Source: Bacillota bacterium
Lineage (GTDB): Bacteria > Patescibacteriota > Minisyncoccia > Phycocordibacterales > Phycocordibacteraceae
Length of the DNA stretch: 56,235 bases
Direction of reading: 5' to 3'
Assembly: GCA_050260455.1 (NCBI GenBank)
Contig: JBLNCF010000012.1
Location: forward strand, 1 to 56,235
Position numbers and translations under genes: made by a program. Below the pieces are notes generated by a model. It was not told the origin of the DNA. It was given only the letters and a program-made list of their open reading frames with translations, and made no database searches. Positions within the stretch are counted from its first letter, which is position 1, and every line of letters starts with the position of its first letter. Below, in pieces: positions 1,384 to 53,321 of this stretch.

Positions 1384-1956
1384 ATGCACCACGGTACATT
1401 CATTCTCGTTATTGGTCCTACAGGAAGCGGCAAAAGTACGCTCATGAAGCATGTGATCGCGCTCTACCCGGAGCTCGTGCTTCCGTATTCCTATACGACA
1501 CGCGCGCGCCGCGCTGATCATATTGAGAATGATCATTACAAGTTCCTCACGCGTGAAGAGTTCGAGCAAAAGATTACCGAAGGTGCATTCCTTGAGTGGG
1601 CAGAATACGGCGGTAACTACTACGGCACGCTGAAGGGAGAGGTTGAGGAGGCGCTCGCGGCAGGGAAGACGCTCCTCAAGGAGGTCGAGGTGCAGGGTGC
1701 GCGCCAGATACGCGAGCAGCTTCCTCGCGAGCAACTGCGCACCGTATTCATAAATGCCGGAAGTTGGGAGGAGCTCGAGAAGCGTGTACTTGCTCGGGCA
1801 CATATGGATGAGGCGCAGCTCGCCGAGCGTCGCAAGCGATACGAGGACGAAGTAACCTTCATGCCGGAAGCTGATTGTGTCATCGACAATACGACCGATC
1901 GCGAGGCAGCAAAGCAGGCATTTGCGGAACTGATACAATCTGCACTGCAGTCATAA
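1384..1956 (+). CDS. gmk: Guanylate kinase
   Basis: GPTGSGKST P-loop, SYTTRARR, FLEWAEYGGNYYGT GK motif. Confidence 0.97.
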   Translation: MHHGTFILVIGPTGSGKSTLMKHVIALYPELVLPYSYTTRARRADHIENDHYKFLTREEFEQKITEGAFLEWAEYGGNYYGTLKGEVEEALAAGKTLLKEVEVQGARQIREQLPREQLRTVFINAGSWEELEKRVLARAHMDEAQLAERRKRYEDEVTFMPEADCVIDNTTDREAAKQAFAELIQSALQS

Positions 1957-1965
1957 TCTATTTTC

Positions 1966-2544
1966 ATGCATTCGAACCCCGTGAACACCGTCATCTTCAC
2001 CGGCCGACCTGGTTCCGGTAAGGGAACCCAAGGAAAGCTACTGGCCGAGAGTCGCGGCTGGATGCATTTCTCGACCGGCGAGCAATTCAAAATGCTACGC
2101 GAAGAGGGTGGTGCGCTCGGGACGCGTGTGCGGGACGTATACGACGCGGGCAAGCTACTGCCGGACTGGTTCGCCACGCATCTTTTCGAAAAAGCTATAC
2201 TCGCGATCGGACAGGAAGCAGGAATGGTATGTGAAGGGTACCCCCGCTCGGTCTCGCAAGCGCAATCGTTCGTGGACATCGTTTCGTGGCTCGAGCGTCC
2301 CTACCTAGTCATTGACCTGGAAGTCTCGGATGAAGAGGTCACCAAACGCATGCTCACCCGCAATCTGACCGAGGATCGTCCAGACAGCGTCACCGAAGAG
2401 CAGATAGCGGGACGCCTCAAGACCTATCATGAGCATACGGCACCGGTACTCGCCTTCTTCAAGGAGCAGGGTACGCTTACGGTGGTGGATGGAACGGGTA
2501 CTCCAGAGGAAATTGCTGGGGCTATTCGAGAAATACTCACATGA
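1966..2544 (+). CDS. adk: Adenylate kinase (short-LID type)
   Basis: GRPGSGKGTQ, HFSTGE, G.LLPD, EGYPRS..QA motifs; upstream of map. Confidence 0.93.
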   Translation: MHSNPVNTVIFTGRPGSGKGTQGKLLAESRGWMHFSTGEQFKMLREEGGALGTRVRDVYDAGKLLPDWFATHLFEKAILAIGQEAGMVCEGYPRSVSQAQSFVDIVSWLERPYLVIDLEVSDEEVTKRMLTRNLTEDRPDSVTEEQIAGRLKTYHEHTAPVLAFFKEQGTLTVVDGTGTPEEIAGAIREILT

Positions 2545-3320
2545 TCGCCCGAACTTCCAAGGACAAAGAGAAGCTACAGGAGGCAGGGAAGCGCCTTGGA
2601 GAAGCGCTCGATGCTCTTGCGGCTATGGTTGCCCCGGGGGTTTCTACTGAAGCGCTTGAAGACAAAGCTCGAGATATCCTCGCGGGATATGGTGATGCTC
2701 CTGCGTTCCTTGATTACACCCCTGAAGGAGCACCGCGTCCGTATCCGGCTGCACTCTGCGTATCGGTGAATGACGAGGTGGTGCACGGCATTCCGCAGGA
2801 GGATCCTCGTATTCTCCAAGAAGGAGATATCGTTGCGCTCGATTTCGGACTCGTGCATGAGGGGTATGTCGTCGACTCGGCACTCACTGTGCCGGTAGGT
2901 AAAACCGACAAGGTCGCGTATGCACTTATGGCCGCGACGAGAGAGTCTTTGGAGCGTGCTATCGATGCAGCACGTCCCGGAAATCGTATCGGTGATATCT
3001 CGCATGCCACCGAGGAGGCATTCAAAGGTACGGGCTTTTCGGTGGTACGCGTGCTTGGGGGACATGGGGTAGGCGCACATGTCCATGAGGAGCCCTATAT
3101 CGCCAATACCGGGCATCCTGGTACCGGAGAAGAGATTGTTCCTGGCATGGTGCTTGCGCTTGAACCAATCGCCAACGAAGGTAAGGCTACGGTCGTGCTT
3201 GGAAAAGACGGCTACACCTATCGCACTAAGGACGGGTCGCGTTCAGCGCATTTTGAGCATACGATTCTTGTGACGGACGGGGACCCGATCGTGCTTACGC
3301 GTCGTCCTTCCGAACAATGA
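2541..3320 (+). CDS. map: Methionine aminopeptidase type I
   Basis: SVNDEVVHGIP, DSALT, GHGVG..VHEEP, LEP, SAHFEHT metal ligands. Confidence 0.98.
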   Translation: MIARTSKDKEKLQEAGKRLGEALDALAAMVAPGVSTEALEDKARDILAGYGDAPAFLDYTPEGAPRPYPAALCVSVNDEVVHGIPQEDPRILQEGDIVALDFGLVHEGYVVDSALTVPVGKTDKVAYALMAATRESLERAIDAARPGNRIGDISHATEEAFKGTGFSVVRVLGGHGVGAHVHEEPYIANTGHPGTGEEIVPGMVLALEPIANEGKATVVLGKDGYTYRTKDGSRSAHFEHTILVTDGDPIVLTRRPSEQ

Positions 3321-3745
3321 ACCCGATTTTCAAGACCGAAGAGAAACGCCGGGTATGCACTCTTGTCCCGTATTACACGGAGGATGGCTCACACTACTTC
3401 TTTGTTCAGAAGCGTTCAGCTGAACAAACACAGCCACACTCGCTTGGGCTTTTCGGGGGCGGGATGGAGGGAGAAGAAACAATCGAGGAAACGATTGAAC
3501 GAGAGATCCGCGAAGAGTTGGAGATCGCCATTTCTGGGCACCGCTTCTTTAGTACATACGAATTCGCCAAGAATATAAATCATGTATTTGTACTCGAGAC
3601 GGAGCCTGGTTTCGCCGAGCGGGTGACGGTACGTGAGGGGGAGTGGGGAAGATTCATCTCCGCAAAGGAGATTCTGGAGCATCCAGATGTGCTCGATGGC
3701 GCCCGCGTAATCTTCTCCCAGATCAATCGGTTCCTGGGGGCGTAG
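3317..3745 (+). CDS. NUDIX hydrolase
   Basis: Nudix box GGMEGEETIEETIEREIREEL. Confidence 0.9.
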   Translation: MNPIFKTEEKRRVCTLVPYYTEDGSHYFFVQKRSAEQTQPHSLGLFGGGMEGEETIEETIEREIREELEIAISGHRFFSTYEFAKNINHVFVLETEPGFAERVTVREGEWGRFISAKEILEHPDVLDGARVIFSQINRFLGA

Positions 3746-3812
3746 CATTTTTCCAGTCCTGCCTATATACTGCCCTCATATCAGCGCCCTAGGCGATTTT
3801 TTGTTATAGAAC

Positions 3813-4424
3813 ATGTCTAATCCGCATCCCAGCACCGAGCGCACGCTCGTTATCGTGAAGCCCGATGGTGTCCAGCGTGGCCTCGTTGGCGAGGTCATTA
3901 AGCGCTACGAGCAGGTAGGTCTCAAGCTCGTTGCTATTAAAATTGGCGTCCCGACTGCCGAGAAGATTGAGCAGCACTACACGCTTGATCCGAACTGGCG
4001 TCGTGTCACGGGCGAGAAGACCATCGAAAGCTACAAGGCAAAGGGCATGCAACCGCCGTCCGAGGATCCGCTTGAGATCACGGCAGTGATTCTCCAGAAC
4101 CTGAAGTCCTACATGACCTCGGGCCCGGTCGTGTTCATGGTGTGGCAGGGTGCACACGCCGTGAAGATCATCCGCAAGCTTACTGGCGGTACCGAGCCGC
4201 TTACGTCGGATGTCGGTACTATCCGTGGCGATTATGTGCTCGACTCCTACCAAATGGCCGACCTCGATGGTCGTGCTGTACGCAACGTCATTCACGCATC
4301 GGGTTCCGTGGATGAAGCAAATGCAGAGATTGCACATTGGTTCGCGCCGAGTGAAGTCGTCGATTATCGCCTCGTACAGGAAGGTATCTTGTACGACGTG
4401 AACATGGACGGCATTCTCGACTAA
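3813..4424 (+). CDS. ndk: Nucleoside-diphosphate kinase
   Basis: RTLVIVKPDGVQRGLVGEVI, GTIRGDY, catalytic NVIHAS; ~35-aa insertion after HY. Confidence 0.96.
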   Translation: MSNPHPSTERTLVIVKPDGVQRGLVGEVIKRYEQVGLKLVAIKIGVPTAEKIEQHYTLDPNWRRVTGEKTIESYKAKGMQPPSEDPLEITAVILQNLKSYMTSGPVVFMVWQGAHAVKIIRKLTGGTEPLTSDVGTIRGDYVLDSYQMADLDGRAVRNVIHASGSVDEANAEIAHWFAPSEVVDYRLVQEGILYDVNMDGILD

Positions 4425-4666: not shown

Positions 4667-4681
4667 TGCTACAGTTTCGAT

Positions 4682-6061
4682 ATGAAACTTACGTTCGTTG
4701 GCGGTGCCGGCACTGTCACAGGTTCCAATTTCTTGGTTGAAGGAGAGCACGGAAAGATTCTTGTCGACTGTGGTCTTGAACAGGGGAGGGATTTTGCCGA
4801 GGAAGAAATGTACGCACCATTCCCGTACGATGTGCCATCCATCGACGCGCTCGTCATCACCCATGCGCATCTAGATCACATTGGTCGTGCACCTAAGCTC
4901 ATGCGCGAAGGCTTTAAAGGGAAGGTGTATGCTTCACCGCCTACGAAGGATCTCATGGATGTGATGCTCTACGACAGCGTAAACGTGCTGTCGCAGGAAG
5001 CCGCACGTAGAGGTTTGAAGCCCATGTACGATGAGGACGATATTCGTGCTCTCATGTCCCGTGTTATCGCTGTCGAATATCACACCGAGACCGAAGTTGC
5101 TCCGGGACTCTCCGTATATCTCCGTCACACTGGCCATATCCTCGGTTCGGCAAGTATCCGCATCAAGGAAATTGCAACCGGCGCTACGCTTGCGCTCACG
5201 GGTGACATCGGCAATCCTTCGCCCTATCTTCCCGCATGGGAGCCTATTGATGACGCTGATGTCATCGTCATGGAAAGTGTGTATGGAGATCGTGTCCACC
5301 CGAATCTCGCCAATCGTGTACCGGAGCTCCGTGACACTCTGAAGCGGGCTATTGAGCGCGTCGGGGTCATTCTTATGCCGGCGTTCTCGCTTGAGCGCAG
5401 CCAGCTCATGCTCTATGAGATCTCTAATCTAATGAGTGCGGGCGAGATTCCGAAGATCCATGTTTTCCTTGATTCGCCCTTGGCTATTGCCGCCACGCGT
5501 GTGTACGAGAAGTGGGCAGGCACGTATTTCAATCATGCCGCCCAGGAAGAAACGAAGGCCGAACACAGCATCTTCCGCTTCCCAAACCTTGAAATGACCG
5601 AGTCTCGCGATGAATCGCTCTCCATTGCAGATGCGCCTATCCCAAAGATGATTATCGCGGGGGCGGGCATGAGTCACGGTGGTCGTATTGGTCAGTGGGA
5701 ACAGATGTACCTGCCTGATCCCTCCACTACGCTTCTTATCGTCGGGTACCAGGCTCCCGGCAGCCCCGGACGTATGCTCCAGGATCAGGCACCTACCGTG
5801 CGCATAAATGGAGAGGACGTACGGGTACGCGCCAAGGTAGATACGCTTTCTGCGTGGTCAGCACATGCCGATCGCGATGAGCTGGTTAAGTTTGCTGGGA
5901 GCTGTCTGCCCCACACGAAAACCTTCTTTACGGCGCTCGGTGAACCCGAGAGCGAGCGTTTCCTCGCGCAGCGCATTAACGGCTTCTTGGGTGCGAAAGC
6001 CGTAGTTTCAGGGGCAGGGCAGAGCTGGGAGATAACGAAGCAGGGTGCACGGAAGGCATAA
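4682..6061 (+). CDS. Metallo-beta-lactamase/beta-CASP family ribonuclease
   Basis: MKLTFVGGAG start, THAHLDHIG, GHILGS, TGDIG, ESVYG, SAHAD; start moved from GTG 4601 to ATG 4682 (TGcTACAGT 6 nt upstream). Confidence 0.93.
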   Translation: MKLTFVGGAGTVTGSNFLVEGEHGKILVDCGLEQGRDFAEEEMYAPFPYDVPSIDALVITHAHLDHIGRAPKLMREGFKGKVYASPPTKDLMDVMLYDSVNVLSQEAARRGLKPMYDEDDIRALMSRVIAVEYHTETEVAPGLSVYLRHTGHILGSASIRIKEIATGATLALTGDIGNPSPYLPAWEPIDDADVIVMESVYGDRVHPNLANRVPELRDTLKRAIERVGVILMPAFSLERSQLMLYEISNLMSAGEIPKIHVFLDSPLAIAATRVYEKWAGTYFNHAAQEETKAEHSIFRFPNLEMTESRDESLSIADAPIPKMIIAGAGMSHGGRIGQWEQMYLPDPSTTLLIVGYQAPGSPGRMLQDQAPTVRINGEDVRVRAKVDTLSAWSAHADRDELVKFAGSCLPHTKTFFTALGEPESERFLAQRINGFLGAKAVVSGAGQSWEITKQGARKA

Positions 6062-9125: not shown

Positions 9126-9388
9126 TACTTAGAAGTGGCCGGAGCCGGCGGAAGCGTCTTACTGAATGCCGAGAGCATGTCCGAAAGAGTCTGGAGGTCA
9201 TCAGCACACTTGGCGTGCTCTACCGGATCGCTGCTGGTGCAGTGTTCGCGGATAAGATCGCGCTGGGCCGTGATATTAGCCTGCGCACGCAAGCTCGCGA
9301 TGGTGGTGTGGTCATGATAAATGACGATGGCCGCGACCACGAGCAATATCACAAGCAGGGCGATAAAGATGCGGGAAAATCGGTTCAT
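9125..9388 (-). CDS. Small single-TM protein with a Cys pair
   Basis: Hydrophobic N-terminal helix, short helical domain HC...KC; TATAGT 8 nt upstream; TAGTG overlap with mpg. Confidence 0.75.
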   Translation of the reverse strand: MNRFSRIFIALLVILLVVAAIVIYHDHTTIASLRAQANITAQRDLIREHCTSSDPVEHAKCADDLQTLSDMLSAFSKTLPPAPATSK

Positions 9389-9523
9389 AGATCTTCACTA
9401 TATAGGTATAGAAGGACGTCGCAAGTATGCGGGAGTGCAGGTGAAGGGTTCCTTAATCTGTTCCTCATTTCTCCTTACTTACGATGCAGGTCTACTCATT
9501 CATTGAGTTAACCAAAACTATTT

Positions 9524-10420: not shown

Positions 10421-10594
10421 GAAATGAGGTGGAATTGGATTCTTTCAGTTAGAACTTCGCTCATGGTATGTAGTTCCTCATATTTCCTACGAGTGGTAGA
10501 TGATTGGTATCACCATGAGTACAGCAAAGCCAATATGTGCCGATAACGAATAACAGCTCCCATTGCTTTGACAATGCTGATATGATTGGGACAT

Positions 10595-11188
10595 ATGCAA
10601 AAAAGCTTCTTTGTGTGGTCTGCAATCGTCTTGCTGGTTATAGTTCTAGTCGCGAGCGCGCTGTTGTATTTCCTAGCTAGACGTCCAGCGTCTCTTAGCG
10701 AACGCGTCGCTGCATCACTTACGGAAGCGACTACCCCGAAAGGTACCAGCACTGACAAGGGAGATTCCCTTGTCTTCAGCGGAGCCGTTCTTTCTTACGT
10801 GGCGCCGAGCGGTTGGCGGTACATGGGGAAGGAGGGTAAGGAAGCGAATGGGTACGTGCAGGTACGCTCTTGGAGCCCGAACAGCGCTGATAAGAAGCCA
10901 TACGCGTCCCTAAGCATCATCGTGAGCAAGGTCGACCCAGGAACTACGTTGCAGTACATCGGTAATCAATATGTTTCAGGAGATAATTACTCCGTGAAAT
11001 CCACAGTATTAGGTGGCAGTAACGGCGAGATCGCCGAATACGACGACTTTGGTAAGCACAACATTACCGCCTACACCATCGCGAATGGGAATACGTACGA
11101 GATCTCCGGCGCATACCCCAAAGCGGACGCTGCCATCTATGAACCGGTGGTGCGTAGCCTGATCTCCAGCGTGAAGATTAGCGATTGA
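10595..11188 (+). CDS. Membrane-anchored PsbP/DcrB-like protein
   Basis: N-terminal TM helix; YVAPSGW, S...LGG..G, ..NG..YEI, ..V..L.SSVKI pattern typical of the Mog1/PsbP fold; TATGAT 8 nt upstream. Confidence 0.65.
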   Translation: MQKSFFVWSAIVLLVIVLVASALLYFLARRPASLSERVAASLTEATTPKGTSTDKGDSLVFSGAVLSYVAPSGWRYMGKEGKEANGYVQVRSWSPNSADKKPYASLSIIVSKVDPGTTLQYIGNQYVSGDNYSVKSTVLGGSNGEIAEYDDFGKHNITAYTIANGNTYEISGAYPKADAAIYEPVVRSLISSVKISD

Positions 11189-11743: not shown

Positions 11744-12190
11744 TTATTTGCTTCGAAGCACGCGTTCGGCTTCACGCATAGCATCCTGACGTTTCAAGTC
11801 TTCACGTCTGTCAGCCTTGCCTTTACCTTTTACGATTGCCACTCGAAGCTTCAAATAGCGACCTGCATTATACATCTCCAAAGGTACTGTTGTCAAACCC
11901 TTCTTGGATTCTGCATCAGCGAGTTCAGCAATTTCTTTCTTGGTGAGGAGGAGGCGTCGTGGACGTTCCGGATCGTATCCCTTCGGGGTGTTTAAGGGCT
12001 GATAGGGCGGAATGGTGGCGCCTACCAGAAACGCTTCACCGCCACGCACCACAATACGGGAACCTTCAAGGGTCCCCAGTTTAGCGCGCACGGACTTCAC
12101 CTCAGCACCTGAAAGCTCAAGTCCAGCAGAGAATGTTTCAAGTATGGAGAAGCGCAGACGCGCTTTTTTGTTCTCGACGAGGGTCGACAT
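11744..12190 (-). CDS. smpB: SsrA-binding protein
   Basis: ENKKAR, AGLELSGAEVKSVR, R.RRLLL.KKEI, G.TTVPL..Y, KGK..DRRE.LK. Confidence 0.98.
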   Translation of the reverse strand: MSTLVENKKARLRFSILETFSAGLELSGAEVKSVRAKLGTLEGSRIVVRGGEAFLVGATIPPYQPLNTPKGYDPERPRRLLLTKKEIAELADAESKKGLTTVPLEMYNAGRYLKLRVAIVKGKGKADRREDLKRQDAMREAERVLRSK

Positions 12191-12297
12191 AGCTAGAGCC
12201 TAGCAAGTTTTGAGGTAAAACGCTCGGTCTTATTTAGCGTTTCATCATATTCCATTGTATAGTCTCGTAGTCTTGTAACTACTGCTCGTAACATTGT

Positions 12298-14875: not shown

Positions 14876-14910
14876 ATGCTTTCCGTACTTTACCCTAGCG
14901 AAGAGGAAAG

Positions 14911-15592: not shown

Positions 15593-17758
15593 CTATTCAG
15601 GGTGCACGTGTTCCATGGTCTCGCGGGCAAGTCGTGCGAGCACGGGATGGTTCTTGAGTTCGGCGTCTTCTCTAATTAATGTGGCAGCTTCCGTGCGGGC
15701 TGCTTCCACTAGTTTCATATTCTTTAGTGCTTCCATGGCAATATCCGAGACGCCCCACTGCCGGCTGCCGGTGAGTTCACCTGCACCGCGAAGTGCGAGG
15801 TCATATTCGGCCAGTTCAAAACCGTTCTTAGCTTCCACAAACGCTTTCAATCTATCCTTCGTTGCTTGTCCGTATGATTCAGGAAGTGCAAAGCAATATG
15901 CTTGATTGCTCGAACGAATGACGCGGCCGCGCAATTGATGTAACTGGGCGAGCCCGAACCGTTCTGCCCCCTCAATTAAGATGACAGTCGCGTTCGGTAC
16001 GTTTACTCCCACTTCCACGACCGAAGTTGCGACCAGTATCTGCGTTTCATTCTTCTCGAATCGTTCCATGGCTTCCTCCTTTTCTCGGGGAGTCATCTTA
16101 CTGTGGAGGATATCGATCTCGATATCAGGAAAGACTTCCGTACGGAGACGCTCCGCCTCGGCTTTCACGGATTTCGCTTGAAGTGCGAGTTCCTTGGTCG
16201 GATCAGGTTCGTCGATGCGCGGACAGATGACGTACGCCTGATGTCCTCCTGCGAGTTCATTGCGCACGCGTTCGTATGCAACTTCGCGTTTCTCGGGTCC
16301 AAGCACTTCGGTAATGACGGGCTTGCGTCCTCGAGGCATTTCATCAAGGAGTGAAATGTCGAGATCGCCGTAGATGGTGAGGGCGAGCGTGCGGGGAATA
16401 GGCGTGGCGGTCATGGAAAGGAGGTGGGGCGACACCCCGTCCTTGCGTACCAGTTTCTGACGATGCGCCTTTCCGAAACGGTGCTGCTCATCGATGATGG
16501 CGTACGCAAGGTTTTGGAATTGAAGCGACTTGTACACGAGCGCATGCGTACCGATGACGATGGGAATCTCACCATTTGCTACCCACTTCGCGAACTGCGC
16601 ACGGGAGATACGCGTCGATTCTTCCCTGCGTATCTTGCTTGGGAACTTACGGCACTCGGTGCCTGTGATGAGTCCGATGGAAATGGGATGATCTTTGAAG
16701 TACGAGACAAAGGTGGAGAAGTGCTGCTTGGCGAGAATCTCGGTGGGACACATATACGCGACCTGGAGTGTGCCACTCTTTCTGCCGGGTGGGGTGGAAG
16801 TAGCGACAAGGTATGCGGTTGCTGCGGCCACCGCGGTCTTGCCGCTGCCCACATCGCCTTCAAGCAGGCGACGCATCGGATGGTTGCTCTCAAAATTAGA
16901 GACGATGGTATCAATCGCGCGTTCCTGTGCCGCCGTCGGAGGAAAAGGGAACGATGCGATGAAGTCCCCGAGTGCATCCCTGTTCGCATGCACAGGAAGC
17001 GATTCTTCTCGTGCAGTCATCGCACGCTCCTGCTGCATCGCTACTTGAATCGCAAACACTTCCTGGAACGCGAAACGTTTACGCGCGGCTTCTGCGTCAG
17101 CGAGTTTCTTCGGCGTGTGCATCCACACCAGTGCGGTCGCAAGTGTGGGCAGGTTGTACTTCTTCACAAGTTCCGATGGGAGCGGATCGGGAAGCTGGGT
17201 GTGCGTATCAGCCTCAAGCGCCTTACGTACTGCATGCGTGAGCCAGAGCGAGGAGATACCTTTGCTCTCCGAGTACACGGGATAGAGCGTATCGCCCTCG
17301 GGTAGATTGCCGGCAGCAAAAAGGTTCTCGTGTATTGCCTCCGGTTCGATCGCCGTCTTATCTATTTCTGGATTAGCAAGGTAGCGCGAGGACGCAGAGC
17401 CGGTTACCTTGCCCGTTGCCTTCACGACGAGGCCATCGTGAAGCATCTTTGCCATATAGGGCTGCGAGAACCATCGGAGCTTGATGCGACCGGAGGCATC
17501 CTCGAGCCAGGCTTCTGCCATAGGTCGTTTCGACTTCCATGCTTTCTTCGCTTCGGGTTTTCGGATGGTGCCATAGAGAGTGACTTCGGTGCCGAGCTGT
17601 GCACCTGCAATGGTGCCGGTGGGACCCCCCGATTCATACCGGGCAGGGAAGTGATACAGGAGATCCTTCACCGTTCGGATACCCAGCTTCGCGAGAGCTT
17701 TCTTTTGATCGGGCTTCAACCGCGGGAAACGCTCGGTTACGAGATCAGAGGGCTGCAT
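15593..17758 (-). CDS. recG: ATP-dependent DNA helicase RecG
   Basis: LLEGDVGSGKT, IGTHAL, IIDEQHRFG, MTATPIPRTL, LHQLRGRV, DLALRGAGE; start moved to ATG 17758 (TATACT 6 nt upstream). Confidence 0.98.
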   Translation of the reverse strand: MQPSDLVTERFPRLKPDQKKALAKLGIRTVKDLLYHFPARYESGGPTGTIAGAQLGTEVTLYGTIRKPEAKKAWKSKRPMAEAWLEDASGRIKLRWFSQPYMAKMLHDGLVVKATGKVTGSASSRYLANPEIDKTAIEPEAIHENLFAAGNLPEGDTLYPVYSESKGISSLWLTHAVRKALEADTHTQLPDPLPSELVKKYNLPTLATALVWMHTPKKLADAEAARKRFAFQEVFAIQVAMQQERAMTAREESLPVHANRDALGDFIASFPFPPTAAQERAIDTIVSNFESNHPMRRLLEGDVGSGKTAVAAATAYLVATSTPPGRKSGTLQVAYMCPTEILAKQHFSTFVSYFKDHPISIGLITGTECRKFPSKIRREESTRISRAQFAKWVANGEIPIVIGTHALVYKSLQFQNLAYAIIDEQHRFGKAHRQKLVRKDGVSPHLLSMTATPIPRTLALTIYGDLDISLLDEMPRGRKPVITEVLGPEKREVAYERVRNELAGGHQAYVICPRIDEPDPTKELALQAKSVKAEAERLRTEVFPDIEIDILHSKMTPREKEEAMERFEKNETQILVATSVVEVGVNVPNATVILIEGAERFGLAQLHQLRGRVIRSSNQAYCFALPESYGQATKDRLKAFVEAKNGFELAEYDLALRGAGELTGSRQWGVSDIAMEALKNMKLVEAARTEAATLIREDAELKNHPVLARLARETMEHVHPE

Positions 17759-17764
17759 AGAGGC

Positions 17765-17796
17765 AGTATAGCTCCGTGCCTGCTTCAGGGTACAAT
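17765..17796. promoter_or_regulatory. Back-to-back -10 boxes for recG (minus strand) and malic enzyme (plus strand)
   Basis: agtata (TATACT on minus, 17765-70) and TACAAT (17791-96), 20 nt apart, 6 and 8 nt from their ATGs. Confidence 0.75.
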
Positions 17797-17804
17797 CAGG
17801 ACCT

Positions 17805-21304: not shown

Positions 21305-21311
21305 GCGCATA

Positions 21312-32745: not shown

Positions 32746-34770
<2,025 letters not shown>

Positions 34771-34782
34771 TACAGTGCCCGT

Positions 34783-36502: not shown

Positions 36503-36508
36503 CGGATA

Positions 36509-37129
36509 ATGGATCCCACTGGCGCAAGCGTCGCGGCGACTACGCCTCCGGTGCATTTCCTGAATATCGAGTACCTCTTTTACCTGATCTACCAGTGGTT
36601 AACGGGTACGCATCAGACGGGAGGGCTCGATATCTCGAACCTTGTTCATCTACTGACTATCCTGTGGGTGGTTATCACGGTGCTCGCGTACATCATCTCG
36701 CTCGCATTCCTGGCGCTCTTCGTACATTCGCTGATTCGCATGTACCAGACCAAGGATGCTGATGCACCACGCTTTGCCACCATTCATGATGTACACCACG
36801 CTGAAGAGGTGACGGAGCACCATCGATGGAATCATGTCAGACAGCTTATCGAAGGGACTCAAGAGAGTGATTGGCGCCAGGCCATCATTGAGGCCGACAT
36901 CATGTTAGACGACATGCTCACCCGGTTGGGGTATCAGGGAGATACCGTGGGCGATAAGCTTAAGGCTGTGGATCCTGCTCGGTTCACAACGTTGCAGGAA
37001 GCATGGGAAGCGCATCGCGTCCGCAATGATATTGCTCATCGAGGCTCCACATTCGCGCTCACCGATCACCTCGCGTATCGCACCATTCTTCACTACGAGA
37101 ATGTGTTCAAGGAGCACGGCGAGATTTAA
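36509..37129 (+). CDS. Membrane-anchored HEPN-like (DUF4145-type) protein
   Basis: TM helix, then AIIEADIMLDDML..G.T.G.KL and RNDIAH (Rx4H). Confidence 0.65.
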   Translation: MDPTGASVAATTPPVHFLNIEYLFYLIYQWLTGTHQTGGLDISNLVHLLTILWVVITVLAYIISLAFLALFVHSLIRMYQTKDADAPRFATIHDVHHAEEVTEHHRWNHVRQLIEGTQESDWRQAIIEADIMLDDMLTRLGYQGDTVGDKLKAVDPARFTTLQEAWEAHRVRNDIAHRGSTFALTDHLAYRTILHYENVFKEHGEI

Positions 37130-37302: not shown

Positions 37303-37340
37303 CTTTACTTCATAGCTCTAAAACGAGATATACTTTGCAT

Positions 37341-46365: not shown

Positions 46366-46851
46366 TGTGGTCTGTCGATGACGGGTCACGATACGCCACT
46401 CGCGGTAGATGAAATACATGACCACGATATCGAACAGCGTGATGCCGGTGACGATGAGTGAATGCAGAGTTGCTATCTGATACATCTGGTAGATAAGAAA
46501 GAGACCCAGTACGACCAGCGAGGCTGGATATGCCCAGAGTCGGTTCTTGAGAAGTGACCAGATGAGAAACACTTTTATGAGTCCACGCGAAAGGAGATAG
46601 AGAGCGACGAAGAGTACGGCGCCAGAGGTGTATGTGGCGACCTCCTGCATGAGTGCGTTCTGCAGATGGGAAAGGGGGAGATAGTTCAAGACGAAGAGCG
46701 CTGCTTGAACAATGGTGGTGGGGGGAATAAAGAGCACGACAATGCCCCCAATCACTTCCGCCAGTGATATTGCGCCCTTCACGAGCACGCTCCAGAGGAA
46801 GAATTCGTACACCACATGTTCTTCCTGTGTGCTCGGTAGTGGTTCAGTCAT
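46363..46851 (-). CDS. DUF2127 family membrane protein
   Basis: VLVKG.ISLAEVIGG, YLLSRGLIK..L..LLKNRLWAYP, T.FD...YF..REWR. Confidence 0.88.
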   Translation of the reverse strand: MTEPLPSTQEEHVVYEFFLWSVLVKGAISLAEVIGGIVVLFIPPTTIVQAALFVLNYLPLSHLQNALMQEVATYTSGAVLFVALYLLSRGLIKVFLIWSLLKNRLWAYPASLVVLGLFLIYQMYQIATLHSLIVTGITLFDIVVMYFIYREWRIVTRHRQTT

Positions 46852-46966
46852 GCCTCGTACAGTACCACGCCATGGACGCGTTTAATTTCGGGTTCACTCC
46901 CGCTTACGTATAGTGCCTATCCCGGTCGATCGATTTATACGTCAATTCTGACGCAGACAAAAACAT

Positions 46967-47199: not shown

Positions 47200-47212
47200 A
47201 TATGATGCAGAC

Positions 47213-47917
47213 ATGCAGGCTCTTATTCTCGCCGCGGGCCGCGGTACTCGTATGCAGGCGCTCACGGATGCGCTCCCAAAACCCATGCTTCAGGTGGCTG
47301 GGAAGACGTTGCTTGAGCACAAGTTCGATATCCTAGGAGATGATTTTGAAGAAATCGTGCTCGTGGTGGGATATCACGAAGAATCCATACGGAGCGCATA
47401 TGGTGACGAGTATCGAGGCATCCCCATACGGTACGTGGTACAGGAAGAGTTGAACGGCACTATGGCTGCGGTGGCGCTTGCGCAGCCGCATCTTTCAGGT
47501 CGGTTTGTCGTCATGATGGGCGATGACATTTATAGTCGTGTGGATCTAGAAGCAGTGCTCGCTGCTCCTGAATGGGCTATCCTCGTCGAGAAGACCGAAC
47601 ACATGGCTGCTGGTGGACGCATGGTTACCGATCAAAACGGGGAAGTGGTCGCCATCGAAGAAGGAGATCATAGAGGAAAGCCGGGCCTCATGAACACCAA
47701 CATGGTCGTGCTTGATCAGCGGGTGTTTGAACACCCCATGATGCCGAAAGCGACAGGAAGTAGTGAGTACGGTCTCCCACAGACCGTCGTGGCGGCTTCA
47801 CGGGCGTCTGGCATTCCACTTCAGGCGGTGTATGCCACCAAATGGATTCAGGTCACCGCCCCAGAAGACCTTGTCGTTGCCGAAGCGCGGATTGAAGATA
47901 CGGCTCGGGCAGTGTAA
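47213..47917 (+). CDS. Sugar-phosphate nucleotidyltransferase (RmlA/GlmU N-domain family)
   Basis: [41 protein letters not shown]. Confidence 0.92.
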
Positions 47918-47930
47918 GCTCCATTTTATT

Positions 47931-48004: not shown

Positions 48005-48067
48005 CCCGTTTCATACGGTTATTGAATATAGCTCTTAAACAGGCTATATTCGGTAAGTTCGCATTCT

Positions 48068-48272: not shown

Positions 48273-48302
48273 ACCCGGGGTGTCTCAGGTATACTCGGTC
48301 GT

Positions 48303-50120
48303 ATGACTGCAGCACAGCGATTCCTCGACGAACTCAATTCCGAATACCTCAAACTCCACAAGGCATACGAAGATTTCTTTTGGATCTCGTATATGGGCGA
48401 TCATTCCGTCGACAAAAAGAAGGATGATGCGATGGCTGCACGTGATGCGTTCCGAAGTAACGGTGAGTATCTGCAGAAGGTAAAGCATCTTTCTAAGGGT
48501 GCTGACAAGAACACAAGGGAACGCCTCAAGATCTGGATACAGTTCTTCGAGCTGTATCAATCTCCGAGTGAGCTTCTCGAGCTGAAACAACGGATTAGTG
48601 AATTGGAATCAGCAACGCTTAAGAAGCGTGCATCTCGTAAAGAGGGATATATAGATCCCTACACCGGTCGATTCGTCGAAGCTTCGTATTTGAAGATGCG
48701 TACGATGAAAGATACGCACGAAGACGAGCAGACCCGCAAGGCTTGCTACGAAGCCGGAGAAGCGCTGGCAGAGACCCTGCTTGATGAATATATCCAGATG
48801 GTGAATCTGCGCAACGAATATGCGCGCGGCATGGGCTACACCGATTTCTATGCATTCAAGACCGAACGCGAGGACGGTATGAAGAAATCGGAGCTTGTGA
48901 AGCTCTTCGACTCAATCTACGAGAAGAGCAAGATTACCTTTGCTGAAGTACGGGCCCTGGAGAAGAAGATGCCGGGACTGCGCAAGCCTTGGAATCTCTC
49001 GTACATGCTCGCAGGAGATTTCACCAAGGAGGAAGATCCCTATTTCCAATTCGATGAAGCACTTCTCCGGTGGGGTCGCTCGTTTGCCACACTTGGAATT
49101 GAGTATAAGAAGAGCGTGCTTCAGCTTGATCTTCTCGACCGTAAGGGGAAATGGAACAACGGCTTCTGTCATTGGCCGGACCTCGTCCACTACGAAAAGG
49201 GCAAGCTCGTTCCGGGCAGCTCCAACTTCACCTGCAATGTAGTGGCTGGCCAGGTTGGGTCAGGGATTCAGGGATACAACACGCTTTTTCATGAGGGTGG
49301 GCATGCGGCCCATTTCCTTAACGTGACCGAACGAGAGGTGATCTTGAACCAGGAATACGCACCGATGTCGATGTCGTGGGCGGAAACCCAGAGCATGTTC
49401 CTCGATACGCTGTTTTCGAGTATCGAATGGAGGATGCGCTATGCGAAGGACAAGAAGGGTAATCCGTATCCTTTTGACCTCTTCGAGCGTAAAGTGCGCA
49501 CCCTCGCTCCGCTTCGCGCCAAGCGCATGCTCTCAATACTCTTTGTCTCTAATTTCGAGCGCGACATTTACGAGACGAAGAGTCTTACTGCAGAGAAAGT
49601 CAAAGCGATCGCGCGCAGAAACTACCGCAAATACTTCGATGAAACCGAAGATTCCCTGTATGCGCTCAACATTCCCCATATCTATTCGTGGGAGAGTTCA
49701 GGCTCGTACCACGGGTACGGACTCGCCGAGATTGCTCTTTCGCAATGGCGCGCGTATTTCTATAAAAAATACGGATATATCGTTGATAACCCGAAGGTGG
49801 GGAAGGAAATGGCTGCGGTATGGAAGTATGGTGCTCGTTATTCCTACAAGCAGTTCGTGAAGCTTGCGACGGGAAAGCCGCCTTCACCGAAAGCGCTTCT
49901 GGATGACATGCTCATGGGTCCCGAAAAGACGATAACGGAAGGGAGAAGGCGTGTCGCTCGTCTAGCAAAGGTGAAAGAGTACACCACACCAGTGAAGCTC
50001 AATGCTTCCATACGGATGGTGCATGGGAAGCGAGAGGTCACAAACAATTCGAAAAGCTTTGAAGATATGGCTCTCGCATATGGCACCTGGGTGCGTGCAC
50101 AGGCCCGCAAGAAGGTATGA
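48303..50120 (+). CDS. M3-family (oligopeptidase-like) zinc metallopeptidase
   Basis: LFHEGGHAAH HExxH, AETQSMFLD third ligand, Y..Y.LA. Confidence 0.88.
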   Translation: MTAAQRFLDELNSEYLKLHKAYEDFFWISYMGDHSVDKKKDDAMAARDAFRSNGEYLQKVKHLSKGADKNTRERLKIWIQFFELYQSPSELLELKQRISELESATLKKRASRKEGYIDPYTGRFVEASYLKMRTMKDTHEDEQTRKACYEAGEALAETLLDEYIQMVNLRNEYARGMGYTDFYAFKTEREDGMKKSELVKLFDSIYEKSKITFAEVRALEKKMPGLRKPWNLSYMLAGDFTKEEDPYFQFDEALLRWGRSFATLGIEYKKSVLQLDLLDRKGKWNNGFCHWPDLVHYEKGKLVPGSSNFTCNVVAGQVGSGIQGYNTLFHEGGHAAHFLNVTEREVILNQEYAPMSMSWAETQSMFLDTLFSSIEWRMRYAKDKKGNPYPFDLFERKVRTLAPLRAKRMLSILFVSNFERDIYETKSLTAEKVKAIARRNYRKYFDETEDSLYALNIPHIYSWESSGSYHGYGLAEIALSQWRAYFYKKYGYIVDNPKVGKEMAAVWKYGARYSYKQFVKLATGKPPSPKALLDDMLMGPEKTITEGRRRVARLAKVKEYTTPVKLNASIRMVHGKREVTNNSKSFEDMALAYGTWVRAQARKKV

Positions 50121-50659: not shown

Positions 50660-50664
50660 CTACC

Positions 50665-50877: not shown

Positions 50878-50931
50878 ATCCTCTACAACCCAATCGGGAA
50901 TTCGAAGGTTGCTGGCTGCTACACTTGGGGC

Positions 50932-51696
50932 ATGAAGCTCAAGGTAGCCACCTGGAATATTGGAGGTGCCAAGCCCATCCGCTCCATCGAGAGCTTTGCG
51001 TTTAGGGATGAAGACTATCTCGCAGAAGACACCGATTACTTCGCGTCCAAGATACGGGGACTCGACCCCGACATAATTTGTCTTCAGGAAACGCATGTGA
51101 ATACCGAACGTTCAGTTGCGCAGGAGATTGCACAGGCTGCAGGAGGGTACGCATGCATCGAAGTTGGTTTAAGCGAGTCACATATCGATCCTGCATATGA
51201 ACTGGGGAATGCCGTGCTGGTTAAGCAGAAACCGGCCACCGAAGAATTCTACACGCTGCCGTATCCTGATTTCCCATTATCACTTCCAGATGGGGGGATC
51301 CCTCACGAGCACAAGAAAGGTATCCAGGTGCTTGAGTATAGTTTCGGAAACATCGCGAACACCCACCTGCAGCCTCTGCGATTCCTGGGCACGCCTTATG
51401 AAAGTGAGAATGGACAGCGCTATGCGCACGAAGTTGAACGGGAGTTTGAGACGCATTTTTCTGCACCGCTTATTCTCTGTGGCGACTTCAACTATGCACA
51501 TGCCGCGGATTTGTATAAGGATTTCGTAACGAAACTGCAACTCACGAATGTGCTGCCCCATGAACCTACTCGTCCCGATGGAAAAATCACCGACTACATC
51601 TTTAGTAGTCCTGAATTCTCTCTCATAGATGCAGGCATTGAGAGAGTAATGGCAGATCACTTCCTGTGTTGGGCAGAGTTTGAATATGCCGACTAA
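50932..51696 (+). CDS. Endonuclease/exonuclease/phosphatase family protein
   Basis: ATWNI, LQE, GNA, NTHL, CGDFN, DYIF, DH. Confidence 0.92.
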   Translation: MKLKVATWNIGGAKPIRSIESFAFRDEDYLAEDTDYFASKIRGLDPDIICLQETHVNTERSVAQEIAQAAGGYACIEVGLSESHIDPAYELGNAVLVKQKPATEEFYTLPYPDFPLSLPDGGIPHEHKKGIQVLEYSFGNIANTHLQPLRFLGTPYESENGQRYAHEVEREFETHFSAPLILCGDFNYAHAADLYKDFVTKLQLTNVLPHEPTRPDGKITDYIFSSPEFSLIDAGIERVMADHFLCWAEFEYAD

Positions 51697-51779
51697 TTAC
51701 GAGGATTGTGCATTACGCCTGGCAAACGCCAGAAGGGGAGCCATACTGAATATGTTCCTTAGTCGTAAGTTACCTATTC

Positions 51780-52202
51780 ATGCATAGCCACTTTCTTCGT
51801 GAAGCAGCCAAGGTCGCGACAGGTCTTTTCCTTGCCGATCTGGTGAGCGTCATCTGGCTCGGCGCTACCGGCTTCTTTCCACTTACCATCCTTGGTGTGA
51901 CCTGGACGGAATCAGCCATCCTTCCGATCGCCGTCTTCGATATCGCCATGCTTCTTCTGCTCGTCCATTGGGGATGGAAGATGAAGCTTCCGCTCAATTC
52001 ACCAACCGAGCGCAACCTGCTCTATCTCGCAGGTGTTGTGTTCGCCATTGTCGCCCTCGTGCACCTGTTGCGTCTCGCGTTTGGATGGGGCCTCATCCTA
52101 GGCACCTTTGCTGTGCCCCTCTGGCTTTCCTGGTTCGGATTCTTCATCACTGCGTACCTCTCGTATACGAGCCTGCATTTCGCTCGTCGAGTAGCGAAAT
52201 AG
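51780..52202 (+). CDS. 4-TM membrane protein
   Basis: Four hydrophobic helices; F.IVALVHLLRL..GW. Confidence 0.75.
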   Translation: MHSHFLREAAKVATGLFLADLVSVIWLGATGFFPLTILGVTWTESAILPIAVFDIAMLLLLVHWGWKMKLPLNSPTERNLLYLAGVVFAIVALVHLLRLAFGWGLILGTFAVPLWLSWFGFFITAYLSYTSLHFARRVAK

Positions 52203-52213
52203 GGATTGAATCA

Positions 52214-52250
52214 TAAAGAAGCAGCCGTCCATAGGGCGGCTGCTTCTTTA
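52214..52250. terminator. Intrinsic terminator
   Basis: taaagaagcagccg/cggctgcttcttta. Confidence 0.88.
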
Positions 52251-52275
52251 TAAACCATGAACTATACTGGACTCT

Positions 52276-52869
52276 ATGAAAACCTACTGGCCCTATATCG
52301 TTGTACTTCTGCTTTGCGTCCTAGGTGTTCTTGCATATGTATTTACGGGCAACAAACCATCAGCTTCGGTGGCCCCACTTGCTACCGAAGCGCCTTGGCC
52401 GGCAGGGGAGGAAACCCTACAGGCACGGTTGGCTGCTGCGGGCTTACCGGCGCTCTCGCAGGAGGGTAACGCACTTCATATCCATCAGCATCTCGATATC
52501 TTGGTGCACGGCAAAAAGATTGATGTGCCTCCCGAGATCGGTGTGCATGAATCTGCTCCTCCATTTATCGCCCCCATTCACACCCATGACACCACAGGGA
52601 TCATTCATGTGGAGTCCCCAACCGTTGAGACCTATACGCTTGGACAGTTTTTTGAGGTCTGGGGTGTGCGCCTTACCGAGAGCTGCCTGGGTGGATATTG
52701 TGCGGACGCAACCAACACGCTGCGGGTATATGTGAATGGTAAACCGTACACGGGCGATCCCGCTGCTCTTGCGCTCGATGCACATCAGGAGATTGTCATG
52801 ACATACGGAACTTCTGCCGAAGAGCCCTCTCCTATACCGAGCAGTTATTCCTTCCCTGAAGGTTATTAG
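52276..52869 (+). CDS. Exported His-rich putative metal-binding protein
   Basis: N-terminal anchor; HIHQH, IHTHD..GIIHVES, TLGQFF..WG, CLGGYC. Confidence 0.8.
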   Translation: MKTYWPYIVVLLLCVLGVLAYVFTGNKPSASVAPLATEAPWPAGEETLQARLAAAGLPALSQEGNALHIHQHLDILVHGKKIDVPPEIGVHESAPPFIAPIHTHDTTGIIHVESPTVETYTLGQFFEVWGVRLTESCLGGYCADATNTLRVYVNGKPYTGDPAALALDAHQEIVMTYGTSAEEPSPIPSSYSFPEGY

Positions 52870-52895
52870 GAAAGCGTGCGTGGTATCGTTTCCTT

Positions 52896-53321
52896 ATGGG
52901 AAACGCCGCACCGCACCGTCCTGCCACGTGGTTCCGCAAGCACCGCGAGAATCTCTCGATGGGCCAGAAGATCGCAGACGGGCTCGCGAATCTTATGGGT
53001 TCGTGGCCCTTCATCATTGCACAAACCATTATCATCATCTGCTGGGTCGTGTTTAATCTGGTCGCGTTTATGAAGCACTGGGATCCGTATCCCTTCATCC
53101 TTCTCAACTTGCTCTTCTCGACGCAGGCAGCGTACGCGGCGCCAATTATCATGATGAGCCAGAATCGGCAGGCCGAACGCGATCGTGCGCAGGCCCTCGC
53201 TGACTACGAGACCAACCAAAAGGCAGAGCAGGAGATCGAGGATCTGCAGGTCTCGCTCGCACGCATCGAGATCGAGAAGCTTGATCGGATTATTGCTCTT
53301 CTTACTGAACGTTCCAAGTAA
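52896..53321 (+). CDS. DUF1003 family membrane protein
   Basis: ADGLA..MGSW.FI, WDPYPFILLNL.FS.QAAYAAPIIMMSQNRQ. Confidence 0.94.
   Translation: MGNAAPHRPATWFRKHRENLSMGQKIADGLANLMGSWPFIIAQTIIIICWVVFNLVAFMKHWDPYPFILLNLLFSTQAAYAAPIIMMSQNRQAERDRAQALADYETNQKAEQEIEDLQVSLARIEIEKLDRIIALLTERSK

Follow-up and report, generated by a model that had tools for sequence, protein, structure and literature searches.

What is the function of the TAnnnT box that stands a few nucleotides before one start codon after another in this window, the whole 56,235-nt stretch of DNA that was analysed? An earlier note had listed 23 such boxes and concluded that housekeeping expression is largely leaderless. The 690-kb source genome is that of an uncultured, ultra-small Parcubacteria/Paceibacteria bacterium of the candidate phyla radiation, near Kaiserbacteria. 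Judged from sequence, about 42% of its genes carry a promoter box ending 6–9 nt before the start, and their messages probably begin at the start codon.

Boxes in the window

All 23 listed boxes were found in the sequence, and the gene names given with them agreed with Pfam. The 14 boxes with a 6-nt spacer exist, although three of their entries (20382, 37341 and 47213) are start-codon coordinates, the boxes lying at 20370, 37329 and 47201. The sets with a 7-nt spacer (comF-like 21317, pilin 29160, DUF2127 46864, M3 peptidase 48290 and 52263) and an 8-nt spacer (9402, 10581, malic enzyme 17791 and 36495) were recovered as described. Four boxes lie beyond these 23, including gmk 1369 (9 nt), 51766 (8 nt) and 54499 (6 nt); two extra boxes, at 30464 and 31161, are less certain. 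Overall, 27 of the ~60 genes in the window are boxed, compared with 5.5% under the null (p = 1e-18).

1369..1386, plus: gmk (guanylate kinase), TGn-TACATT, 9-nt spacer, ATG 1384
1954..1968, plus: adk, TAATCT, 6-nt spacer, ATG 1966; 9-nt gap to gmk
4670..4684, plus: MBL/beta-CASP RNase, TGc-TACAGT, 6-nt spacer, ATG 4682
9386..9402, minus: 87-aa ORF, TATAGT, 8-nt spacer, ATG 9388
10581..10597, plus: 197-aa ORF, TGa-TATGAT, 8-nt spacer, ATG 10595
12188..12202, minus: smpB, TGc-TAGGCT (12202-12197), 6-nt spacer, ATG 12190; Pfam SmpB from residue 5
17756..17770, minus: recG, TATACT (17770-17765), 6-nt spacer, ATG 17758
17791..17807, plus: malic enzyme, TACAAT, 8-nt spacer, ATG 17805; divergent from recG
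20370..20384, plus: 58-aa hydrophobic ORF (putative gene), TGc-TATCGT, 6-nt spacer, ATG 20382
21302..21317, minus: comF-like phosphoribosyltransferase, TATGAT, 7-nt spacer, ATG 21304
21341..21355, plus: pilM, TGg-TACAAT, 6-nt spacer, ATG 21353; divergent from comF
22480..22494, plus: pilN-like, TATACT, 6-nt spacer, GTG 22492 (GTG is rare among boxed genes)
24052..24066, plus: pilB ATPase, TATCAT, 6-nt spacer, ATG 24064
29160..29175, plus: type IV pilin, TATACT, 7-nt spacer, ATG 29173; start anchored by N-methylation motif from residue 5
32743..32757, plus: ligA, TAGGAT, 6-nt spacer, ATG 32755
34768..34785, plus: gatC, ligA TGA stop and TACAGT forming an extended -10, 6-nt spacer, ATG 34783
36495..36511, plus: 206-aa ORF, TATACT, 8-nt spacer, ATG 36509; box within the end of gatA, gap 6 nt
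37329..37343, plus: 408-aa ORF, TATACT, 6-nt spacer, ATG 37341
46849..46864, minus: DUF2127 membrane protein, TGg-TACTGT, 7-nt spacer, ATG 46851
47201..47215, plus: nucleotidyl transferase, TATGAT, 6-nt spacer, ATG 47213; Pfam profile from residue 3
48290..48305, plus: M3 peptidase, TATACT, 7-nt spacer, ATG 48303
50920..50934, plus: EEP nuclease/phosphatase, TGc-TACACT, 6-nt spacer, ATG 50932; Pfam profile from residue 6
51766..51782, plus: 140-aa ORF, TAAGTT, 8-nt spacer, ATG 51780
52263..52278, plus: 197-aa ORF, TATACT, 7-nt spacer, ATG 52276
52884..52898, plus: DUF1003, TGg-TATCGT, 6-nt spacer, ATG 52896
54499..54513, plus: 308-aa ORF, TATGCT, 6-nt spacer; ATG overlaps the upstream stop (ATGA)

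For SmpB, the NTP transferase, pilin, EEP and gmk, the Pfam match sets in at residues 3–6, indicating that these starts are correct. For recG, ATG 17758 was preferred over a longer TTG ORF because the protein then matches the RecG wedge domain from residue 16 onwards. The divergent pairs recG/malic enzyme and comF/pilM, with 46 and 48 bp between their start codons, carry back-to-back boxes, leaving no room for leaders. The box of the 308-aa ORF lies entirely within the upstream glycoside-hydrolase gene.

Genome-wide position of the box

Genes were called with a home-made ORF scorer; some of its starts are wrong and some of its ORFs spurious. The genome-wide histogram that had been proposed as a check revealed a sharp peak at 6–9 nt, which was kept with homology-anchored starts. 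TAnnnT begins exactly 12 nt ahead of the first ATG in 93 of 632 ORFs (14.7%), compared with an upstream background of ~1.3% (p = 8e-66), and at -13, -14 and -15 in 7.6%, 6.0% and 5.4%; at internal ATGs the corresponding values are 0.3–1.5%. The commonest spacer is 6 nt. A box lies 6–9 nt ahead of a start candidate in 266 of 633 genes (42%, versus ~5% of control windows; p = 1e-91), and before 174 of 493 first ATGs but only 65 of 2753 internal ATGs (odds ratio 22.6, p = 7e-100).

Counting without gene calls gave 61 occurrences of TGNTANNNT-N6-ATG, compared with ~8 when the spacer is unrelated and 9 when the pattern is reversed. The spacer profile obtained in this way (61, 28, 26 and 20 at spacers 6–9, versus ~8 elsewhere) was replicated in the relative G017. 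Homology-anchored starts were boxed in 33 of 70 cases (47%) in this genome and 31 of 70 in G017, with 21 boxed in both, compared with 14.6 expected.

The box as a promoter

Genome-wide, the TGn positions upstream of the box are occupied by T in 50% and G in 62% of cases, the top hexamer is TATACT, and no -35 signal was detected upstream of boxes. The claims that several boxes are extended by TGn, and that none has a properly spaced Shine-Dalgarno (SD) sequence or a clear -35 box, were both borne out: 10 of the 27 window boxes have TGn, and across the genome neither SD enrichment nor a -35 signal was seen. The promoters apparently used by the housekeeping sigma factor have no -35 and an often TGn-extended -10, with the consensus TGnTAtaCT. 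Boxes precede 35% of first ATGs, versus 7.7% for GTG and 2.7% for TTG, and 82% of boxed starts have a pyrimidine at -1.

The same type of promoter stands ahead of untranslated genes. A box beginning at -18 to -13 was found for 23 of 46 tRNA genes, compared with 4.3% at random positions (p = 1e-19), so that half of the tRNA genes have a box 9 nt upstream of the mature 5' end. This spacing would give 2–3-nt leaders that are removed by RNase P. Three examples lie in the window.

14876..14892, minus: tRNA-Ile box TAAAGT, beginning 17 nt before the tRNA (14875-14801, minus strand)
47915..47929, plus: tRNA-Met box TAAGCT, beginning 15 nt before the mature 5' end at 47930
48054..48067, plus: tRNA-Asp box TAAGTT, beginning 14 nt before the tRNA start at 48068

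Absence of Shine-Dalgarno signals

Inspection of the 16S 3' end, also proposed earlier, showed that the anti-SD is missing. In this genome the end reads GGAACAUAUCC where GGAUCACCUCC is usual (in full, GGAACAUAUCCAAU), CCUCC having become UAUCC. Among relatives, the 16S 3' end was available for 24; all of them lack CCUCC, and their tails differ from one another. No genome-wide SD enrichment was detected, GGAG preceding 7.6% of starts versus 6.9% of internal controls. Ribosomal protein uL1 is absent, and together with the anti-SD loss this matches a published anti-SD-less Parcubacteria subgroup. IF3, which in E. coli disfavours leaderless initiation on 30S subunits, is present in the genome.

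Gene runs, unboxed genes and conservation

Boxes had been reported inside apparent operons, two of them reusing the upstream stop codon, and this was confirmed: the adk box opens with the gmk TAA, and the ligA TGA supplies the TGn of the gatC box. Unboxed genes that overlap, or lie within 15 nt of, an upstream same-strand gene, often as ATGA, make up ~23% of genes, which suggests that they are translationally coupled. A strict box is found in just 46% of the genes obliged to head a transcription unit by a divergent upstream neighbour, and ~24% of all genes have neither box nor coupling. Upstream of some of the latter, extended -10 boxes occur at 14–110 nt (24 sense versus 11 antisense), a sense-strand excess implying that leadered mRNAs exist too.

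Among 30 relatives, a -10-like hexamer, mostly TAnnnT, was seen by eye, uncounted, just 5' of the homologous ligA ATG in most, and the flanks around this retained hexamer are unalignable. The TGA-TAnnnT arrangement of gatC is retained in 22 of 27 relatives. In the same pipeline, the -12 peak reaches 18.1% in relatives versus 1.1% at outgroup loci.

Alternative explanations

We consider it highly probable that the boxes are -35-less, often extended -10 promoters at the ATG, giving leaderless expression without SD pairing. An unlikely alternative is that only the heads of transcription units are truly leaderless, the in-operon boxes (adk, gatC, 36509, 54511 and others) being weak or unused and expression proceeding operon by operon through polycistronic coupling. 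Very tight same-strand junctions are indeed numerous, 142 unboxed genes are plausibly coupled, and stop codons (TAA, TAG or TGA) supply part of the motif free, raising the chance rate; of the 39 boxed genes whose same-strand gap is short or overlapping, 19 have an upstream stop that begins or overlaps the box or its TGn. However, 13 tight-gap boxes lie entirely within the upstream ORF with no stop codon contributing, and the box frequency at same-strand gaps is 70% at 16–40 nt and 29% at 0–15 nt, compared with a null of ~5%. Genes with a same-strand upstream neighbour are boxed nearly as often (41%) as divergent ones (46%), and the gatC box that is conserved in relatives is itself an in-operon box.

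It is far less probable that TAnnnT is, instead of a promoter, a translation signal as in GeneMarkS-2 group B: a non-SD element of leadered mRNAs that binds ribosomes or is an unstructured A/T stretch. A ribosome-binding site would likewise sit where the box is centred, ~9–10 nt ahead of the start codon, and the altered 16S tail could in principle have gained a new pairing; yet the tail complements GGATA, GATAT and ATATG are not enriched, and the tail varies in relatives whereas the ligA and gatC loci of related MAGs keep box and spacing, although these two sets of genomes may differ. The presence of this box at a constant distance before half of the untranslated tRNA genes, its near absence (12%) before overlapping or coupled genes, and the TGn extension with invariant T1, A2 and T6, which is the sigma-70 -10 pattern, all argue for a promoter. 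An artefact of composition, upstream stop codons or motif-guided start choice has a negligible probability. Eight of the earlier starts were picked partly by the motif, and in-frame TAA/TAG place TA at multiples of 3 before a longest-ORF start, but the unedited first-ATG histogram has the peak, including the out-of-frame positions -13 and -14. Without gene calls, TA[TC]A[ACG]T followed by ATG, which cannot begin with a stop, is ~7-fold enriched at spacer 6 (56, versus 2–10 at spacers 0–5 and 12–20). The gene-call-free counts and reversed-pattern control agree with the peak, and together with the motif-blind homology-anchored starts and the low outgroup value they contradict the artefact.

Proposed mechanism

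The preferred reading of leaderless expression from promoters at the ATG is strongly supported, yet it is one that we infer from sequence. Each of its sequence-level predictions that could be tested was borne out: the peak, the extended -10, the tRNA boxes, the ATG bias, the lack of SD enrichment and of an anti-SD, and the conservation at ligA and gatC. RNA polymerase normally starts ~7 nt past the -10 hexamer, and from this distance a box at 6–9 nt would place the transcript start on, or within 1–3 nt of, the A of AUG; with 8–9-nt spacers the transcript may have a 1–3-nt leader. In leaderless mRNAs of Actinobacteria and Deinococcus, this geometry reportedly places the start on or next to the start codon. 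As in known leaderless translation, the ribosome and initiator tRNA would load directly on the 5'-terminal AUG without SD pairing, which would suit a 16S rRNA without anti-SD and genes without SD enrichment. Promoters are set gene by gene, lying in short same-strand gaps or within the tail of the upstream gene, whose stop codon is at times part of the box. The ~23% of unboxed genes at tight junctions are probably expressed by termination-reinitiation coupling, and a minority, such as rpoD and infC, apparently have short leaders. The description "largely leaderless" holds for ~42–50% of genes, a share that rises to about two thirds once genes tightly coupled to an upstream gene are set aside, but not for the ~24% with no recognisable signal, nor for some leadered promoters.

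Comparison with known systems

The mechanism itself is already known; for this lineage, Patescibacteria, no published report of leaderless expression was found. Like Bacteroidota (GeneMarkS-2 group B), this genome has genes without SD sequences, but in Bacteroidota the anti-SD is retained and mRNAs are leadered, an A-rich non-SD signal preceding all genes, including operon-internal ones; the signal in this genome is a promoter, present before tRNA genes as well. In haloarchaea and Sulfolobus (group D), most transcription units likewise begin at the start codon, and SD matters little or not at all; there, however, a TATA box ~26 nt upstream and archaeal initiation factors are used instead of a sigma-70 extended -10.

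In group C (Mycobacterium, Streptomyces, Corynebacterium and Deinococcus), a Pribnow-type -10 lies 6–8 nt from the start in 25–50% of transcripts (PMC6028130). The TAnnnT consensus, the weak or absent -35 and the mostly ATG starts are shared with this group (PMC6028130). Unlike here, its members, none of them Patescibacteria, keep the anti-SD and use SD sites for other genes; here the anti-SD is lost without SD enrichment, and boxes are equally common inside same-strand runs and at run heads. The ribosome features match those of the anti-SD-less, uL1-less Parcubacteria subgroup of Tsurumaki et al. 2022 (RNA 28:1041; PMC9297842), in which SD helices probably do not form; the 16S 3' end without CCUCCU, the absence of uL1 and the Parcubacteria affiliation are shared. 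That study concerns rRNA and ribosomal-protein losses and mentions neither leaderless transcription nor a replacement initiation route. The promoter-at-ATG layout seen here supplies such a route.

The TAnnnT box in the window

The window comes from contig C12 (positions 1-56235; 56 kb) of the source genome G000, which spans 690 kb, is 98% complete and has 54% G+C. MAGs with a related ligA locus carry the labels Parcubacteria, Paceibacteria, Kaiserbacteria and, loosely, Saccharibacteria, and the source was therefore placed among the CPR/Patescibacteria, in the Parcubacteria group. The window contains secY, gmk, adk, an MBL/beta-CASP RNase gene, infC, tmRNA, smpB, ftsH, recG, a malic enzyme gene, a type IV pilus cluster (pilM to pilins), ligA, gatCA, ABC and MprF-like genes and an M3 peptidase gene, among others. 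The tmRNA gene (11302-11698, minus strand) lies directly downstream of smpB (11744-12190) on the same strand.

An earlier note had described a TAnnnT hexamer 6-8 nt before the start codons of about 23 genes and read it as a sign of leaderless expression. Inspection of the window located every one of these boxes at the gene named, and most of the coordinates were correct; the labels 20382, 37341 and 47213 are positions of start codons, not of boxes. The smpB and recG genes lie on the minus strand, and the malic enzyme gene is a plus-strand ORF at 17805 that our home-made ORF scorer had not called. Further boxes precede gmk, 51780 and 54511. In the window, 27 of ~60 genes are boxed, against a null rate of 5.5% (p = 1e-18). 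The TGn extension reported for several boxes is carried by 10 of the 27, and the described reuse of upstream stop codons was likewise borne out: the adk box opens with the TAA stop of gmk, and the TGn of the gatC box is the TGA stop of ligA. Spacing in divergent pairs can be extremely compact, as in the following two intervals.

Divergent gene pairs with paired boxes
17756-17807, divergent, recG / malic enzyme: start codons 46 bp apart, two back-to-back outward-facing -10 boxes between them
21302-21355, divergent, comF-like / pilM: start codons 48 bp apart, two outward-facing -10 boxes between them

A candidate 58-aa hydrophobic ORF (20382-20558, plus strand) is preceded by a perfect TGc-TATCGT-N6-ATG promoter sequence. 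It is antisense to a competing candidate gene, a 260-aa TTG-start ORF (19779-20561, minus strand), which has only a faint cupredoxin-like match.

Genome-wide position of the box and choice of start codon

Genes were called with a simple home-made codon-usage scorer (643 genes), and their starts were left unedited. The genome-wide position histogram that the earlier note had proposed revealed a clear TAnnnT peak at -12 to -15. Relative to the first ATG, the hexamer starts at -12 in 14.7% of genes (p = 8e-66), at -13 in 7.6%, at -14 in 6.0% and at -15 in 5.4%, compared with ~1.3% at the remaining upstream positions and 0.3-1.5% at internal in-frame ATGs. Boxes ending 6-9 nt before the codon were present at 35% of first ATGs and 2.4% of internal ATGs, and at only 7.7% of first GTG and 2.7% of first TTG codons. 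When start candidates up to 120 nt from the longest start were considered, 266 of 633 genes (42%) had a boxed candidate, compared with ~5% in internal windows of equal size. Counting independently of gene calls gave 61 occurrences of TGNTANNNT-N6-ATG, with 28, 26 and 20 for N7, N8 and N9, against ~8 at unrelated spacers and 9 for the reversed pattern.

Starts were also anchored by homology, using 400 kb of a same-genus relative, G017. Anchored starts were defined as start-codon pairs lying equally far from where the protein alignment begins, in orthologue pairs of median 54% identity, a selection blind to the motif. Among 70 such pairs, 33 (47%) were boxed in G000 and 31 in G017, with 21 boxed in both versus 14.6 expected (p = 4e-23 and 0.002). 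Among proteins of the window, the Pfam match starts at residues 3-6 in SmpB, the NTP transferase, the pilin (N-methylation motif), EEP and gmk; for the RecG wedge domain it starts at residue 16. These onsets near the N-terminus favour the boxed starts over longer ORFs. In recG, pilM, pilB and MBL, the boxed, homology-supported start differs from the longest-ORF start.

The box as a promoter

Alignment on the box revealed an extended -10 element, with T in 50% and G in 62% of cases at box positions -3 and -2, and TATACT as the commonest hexamer. A -35 element was sought in an alignment on 181 boxes and was not found, the information content between -45 and -10 being ~0. Boxed genes have a pyrimidine directly ahead of the start codon in 82% of cases. 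The tRNA genes supply the strongest support for a promoter role: in 23 of 46, a TAnnnT begins between 13 and 18 nt upstream of the mature 5' end, with a peak at -15 (11 genes), versus 4.3% of random positions. Three of these lie in the window.

Boxed tRNA genes in the window
47930, tRNA-Met
48068, tRNA-Asp
14875, minus strand, tRNA-Ile

Since tRNA genes are untranslated, a box at a fixed short distance before them marks it as a transcription signal. The implied arrangement is one of individually promoted tRNAs with leaders of just 2-3 nt, which would be removable, as RNase P RNA is present (C12:122888-123213). The features agree with those of a sigma-70 extended -10 promoter, namely TGn followed by TAnnnT, a dispensable -35 and occurrence also ahead of non-coding RNA genes. 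The primary sigma factor of G000 has regions 2-4. Its gene (C4:79411-80685) also encodes a long Lys/Ala-rich N-terminal extension of ~60 residues, with AKK/KKTVKK repeats, ahead of region 1.2. From the promoter geometry, we infer that the transcription start site coincides with the AUG in boxed genes.

The box is unlikely to be a non-SD ribosome-binding signal as in the genomes of GeneMarkS-2 group B, where one motif that is not a promoter lies upstream of all genes, operon-internal ones included. The distribution in G000 differs from this pattern: the box is rare before overlapping genes, has promoter features and is present ahead of tRNA genes.

Conservation of the box in relatives

At the ligA loci of 30 relatives, a -10-like hexamer (mostly TAnnnT) was seen just 5' of the homologous ATG in most cases, as judged by eye and uncounted, while the flanks around it could not be aligned among relatives. 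Of 27 relatives (loci L031-L060), 22 retain the gatC promoter inside the operon (34768-34785), which is built on the ligA TGA stop (cgTGATAgAGT; cgTGATAnAGT). With one naive pipeline, the -12 peak reached 18.1% in the loci of relatives and 1.1% in unrelated outgroup loci.

Gene spacing and genes lacking a box

The boxed share varied with the gap to the same-strand upstream gene, being 12% for overlapping genes, 29% for gaps of 0-15 nt, 70% for 16-40 nt and 53% for 41-100 nt, with an overall share of 46% where the neighbour is divergent; promoters are thus not limited to the heads of strand runs. Of the boxes in tight gaps, 13 are entirely contained in the upstream ORF, 8 have its stop codon as their first bases and 11 overlap the stop.

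Across 624 genes, 42% have a strict box and 23% are coupled, defined as a gap of at most 15 nt or an overlap with the upstream gene (including 37 ATGA overlaps). A further 4% have a box at 10-13 nt, 7% have a degenerate TAnnnV, a class whose null rate is likewise ~7%, and 24% have none of these. In the 218 unboxed, uncoupled genes, degenerate TAnnnV occurs in 26% versus 7.5%, and a search of the same 218 for another motif found none. Upstream of genes in the class with none, extended -10 boxes were detected at 14-180 nt (most within 110 nt), 24 in sense and 11 in antisense orientation, and this sense excess indicates that some leadered mRNAs exist. Examples of this type are rpoD, with TACAAT 17 nt upstream, and infC.

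The infC gene, encoding IF3 (7969-8532, minus strand), has TTG as its first start candidate and TAGAAT 15 nt upstream, and is apparently short-leadered. A non-ATG start of infC is a classical autoregulatory feature; here the TTG candidate is set in an organism that otherwise favours a 5'-terminal ATG.

Absence of a Shine-Dalgarno system

The earlier note saw no properly spaced SD before the boxed genes of the window. Genome-wide, SD words upstream of starts were judged not enriched over the control, with GGAG at 7.6% versus 6.9%, GGAGG at 3.6% versus 1.5%, and GGAG and GAGG combined at 10% versus 8.5%. Inspection of the 16S rRNA 3' end, also suggested in the earlier note, revealed no anti-SD.

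16S rRNA gene of G000
C15:26841-28300, 16S rRNA, ending ...GGAACAUAUCCAAU (E. coli equivalent: GGAUCACCUCCUUA)

CCUCC is missing from the 16S 3' end in 24 of 24 genus and order relatives having that end, and the anti-SD is missing in 8 of 11 sampled same-class genomes with a 16S 3' end. Past the conserved helix 45, the tails vary from genus to genus in relatives (loci L002-L029) and include ACAUAUCC, AUAUUUCC, UUAAUUCA, AUUCUUCC and others. This variation looks like relaxed selection after loss of anti-SD function. The altered tail was also considered as a new SD partner and rejected, as the complementary words GGATA, GATAT, TGGAT and ATATG show no enrichment ahead of start codons. In several relatives the 16S gene is split or longer, with matches spanning 2.2-2.5 kb, probably due to insertions.

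A search for uL1 (PF00687) gave no match in the 98%-complete G000, while all 14 control genomes matched. Both traits of the anti-SD-less Parcubacteria subgroup (Tsurumaki et al. 2022, PMC9297842), no CCUCC(U) and no uL1, are thus found in G000. The genome encodes a multi-domain S1 protein and IF3. In contrast, G224, a member of the Patescibacteria with a canonical anti-SD, combines SD enrichment (31% versus 8%) with a -12 peak of 11%.

Breadth within the Patescibacteria

In a survey of 301 Patescibacteria genomes, TGNTANNNT-N6-ATG had a median enrichment of 2.4-fold over the reversed control. G000 ranked 13th at 6.2-fold, and several other families reached 4-15-fold. Enrichment did not differ with anti-SD state (median 2.1 in both groups, p = 0.56; canonical n = 160, lacking n = 19), in a comparison that is crude given its reversed-pattern control, varying GC content and 122 genomes without a 16S 3' end. 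The geometry of a promoter at the ATG is probably widespread in the phylum, extending outside the anti-SD-less clade. The enrichment was absent in the surveyed family f35 (GC ~33%, completeness 76-93%). Its member G207 (GC 33%), examined as a negative control, has neither SD nor box with table-11 ORFs, and its 16S contains CCUCC; this lineage probably uses another genetic code, making table-11 ORF starts there unreliable.

Discussion

We put forward, as a tentative possibility, that the clade runs an essentially SD-free expression regime that shapes genome layout. Ribosomes would load de novo mainly at 5'-terminal AUGs, which would arise from extended -10 promoters that lack a -35 and are positioned at individual genes. 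Some would lie inside upstream ORFs or be built on the upstream stop, as in the conserved TGA-TAnnnT before gatC, while most remaining cistrons would be translated by termination-reinitiation, and tRNAs would be transcribed from the same promoters with 2-3-nt leaders. Leaderless expression may be the older trait and have made it tolerable to lose the anti-SD, and perhaps uL1, later on, since many families that still have an anti-SD show promoter-at-ATG enrichment, and G224 combines SD with the -12 peak.

A large Parcubacteria subgroup is known to have lost the anti-SD, leaving open how its ribosomes find start codons (PMC9297842). The present results offer a testable answer: a promoter is fused to the ATG in about two-thirds of independently initiated genes, and coupling covers most of the remainder. 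Software that relies on an RBS to call genes will place starts wrongly in such genomes, and the box offers a guide for annotating starts and transcription units across thousands of CPR MAGs. The arrangement points to ultra-small cells whose transcription units are very short and each have a promoter of their own.

A full-text literature search found no paper linking leaderless expression to CPR, Patescibacteria, Parcubacteria or Saccharibacteria. For SD and these lineages, it returned just reference-list matches and the anti-SD paper (PMC9297842), which does not mention leaderless expression. The layout is a known one and, as far as this search shows, previously unreported for this lineage. 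It is of the type of GeneMarkS-2 group C, bacterial genomes rich in leaderless transcripts from the Actinobacteria and Deinococcus-Thermus (PMC6028130), in which a -10 motif lies 6-8 nt from the start in at least 25% of genes or operons, mapped transcription starts fall at the start codon (5' UTR of 0-5 nt), and leadered or operon-internal genes use an SD RBS. G000 shares the -10-near-start layout, with 42% of genes boxed at 6-9 nt. It differs from group C in that it lacks any SD component, including at leadered and operon-internal genes, and in that its promoters occur at similar frequency within gene runs and at their heads.
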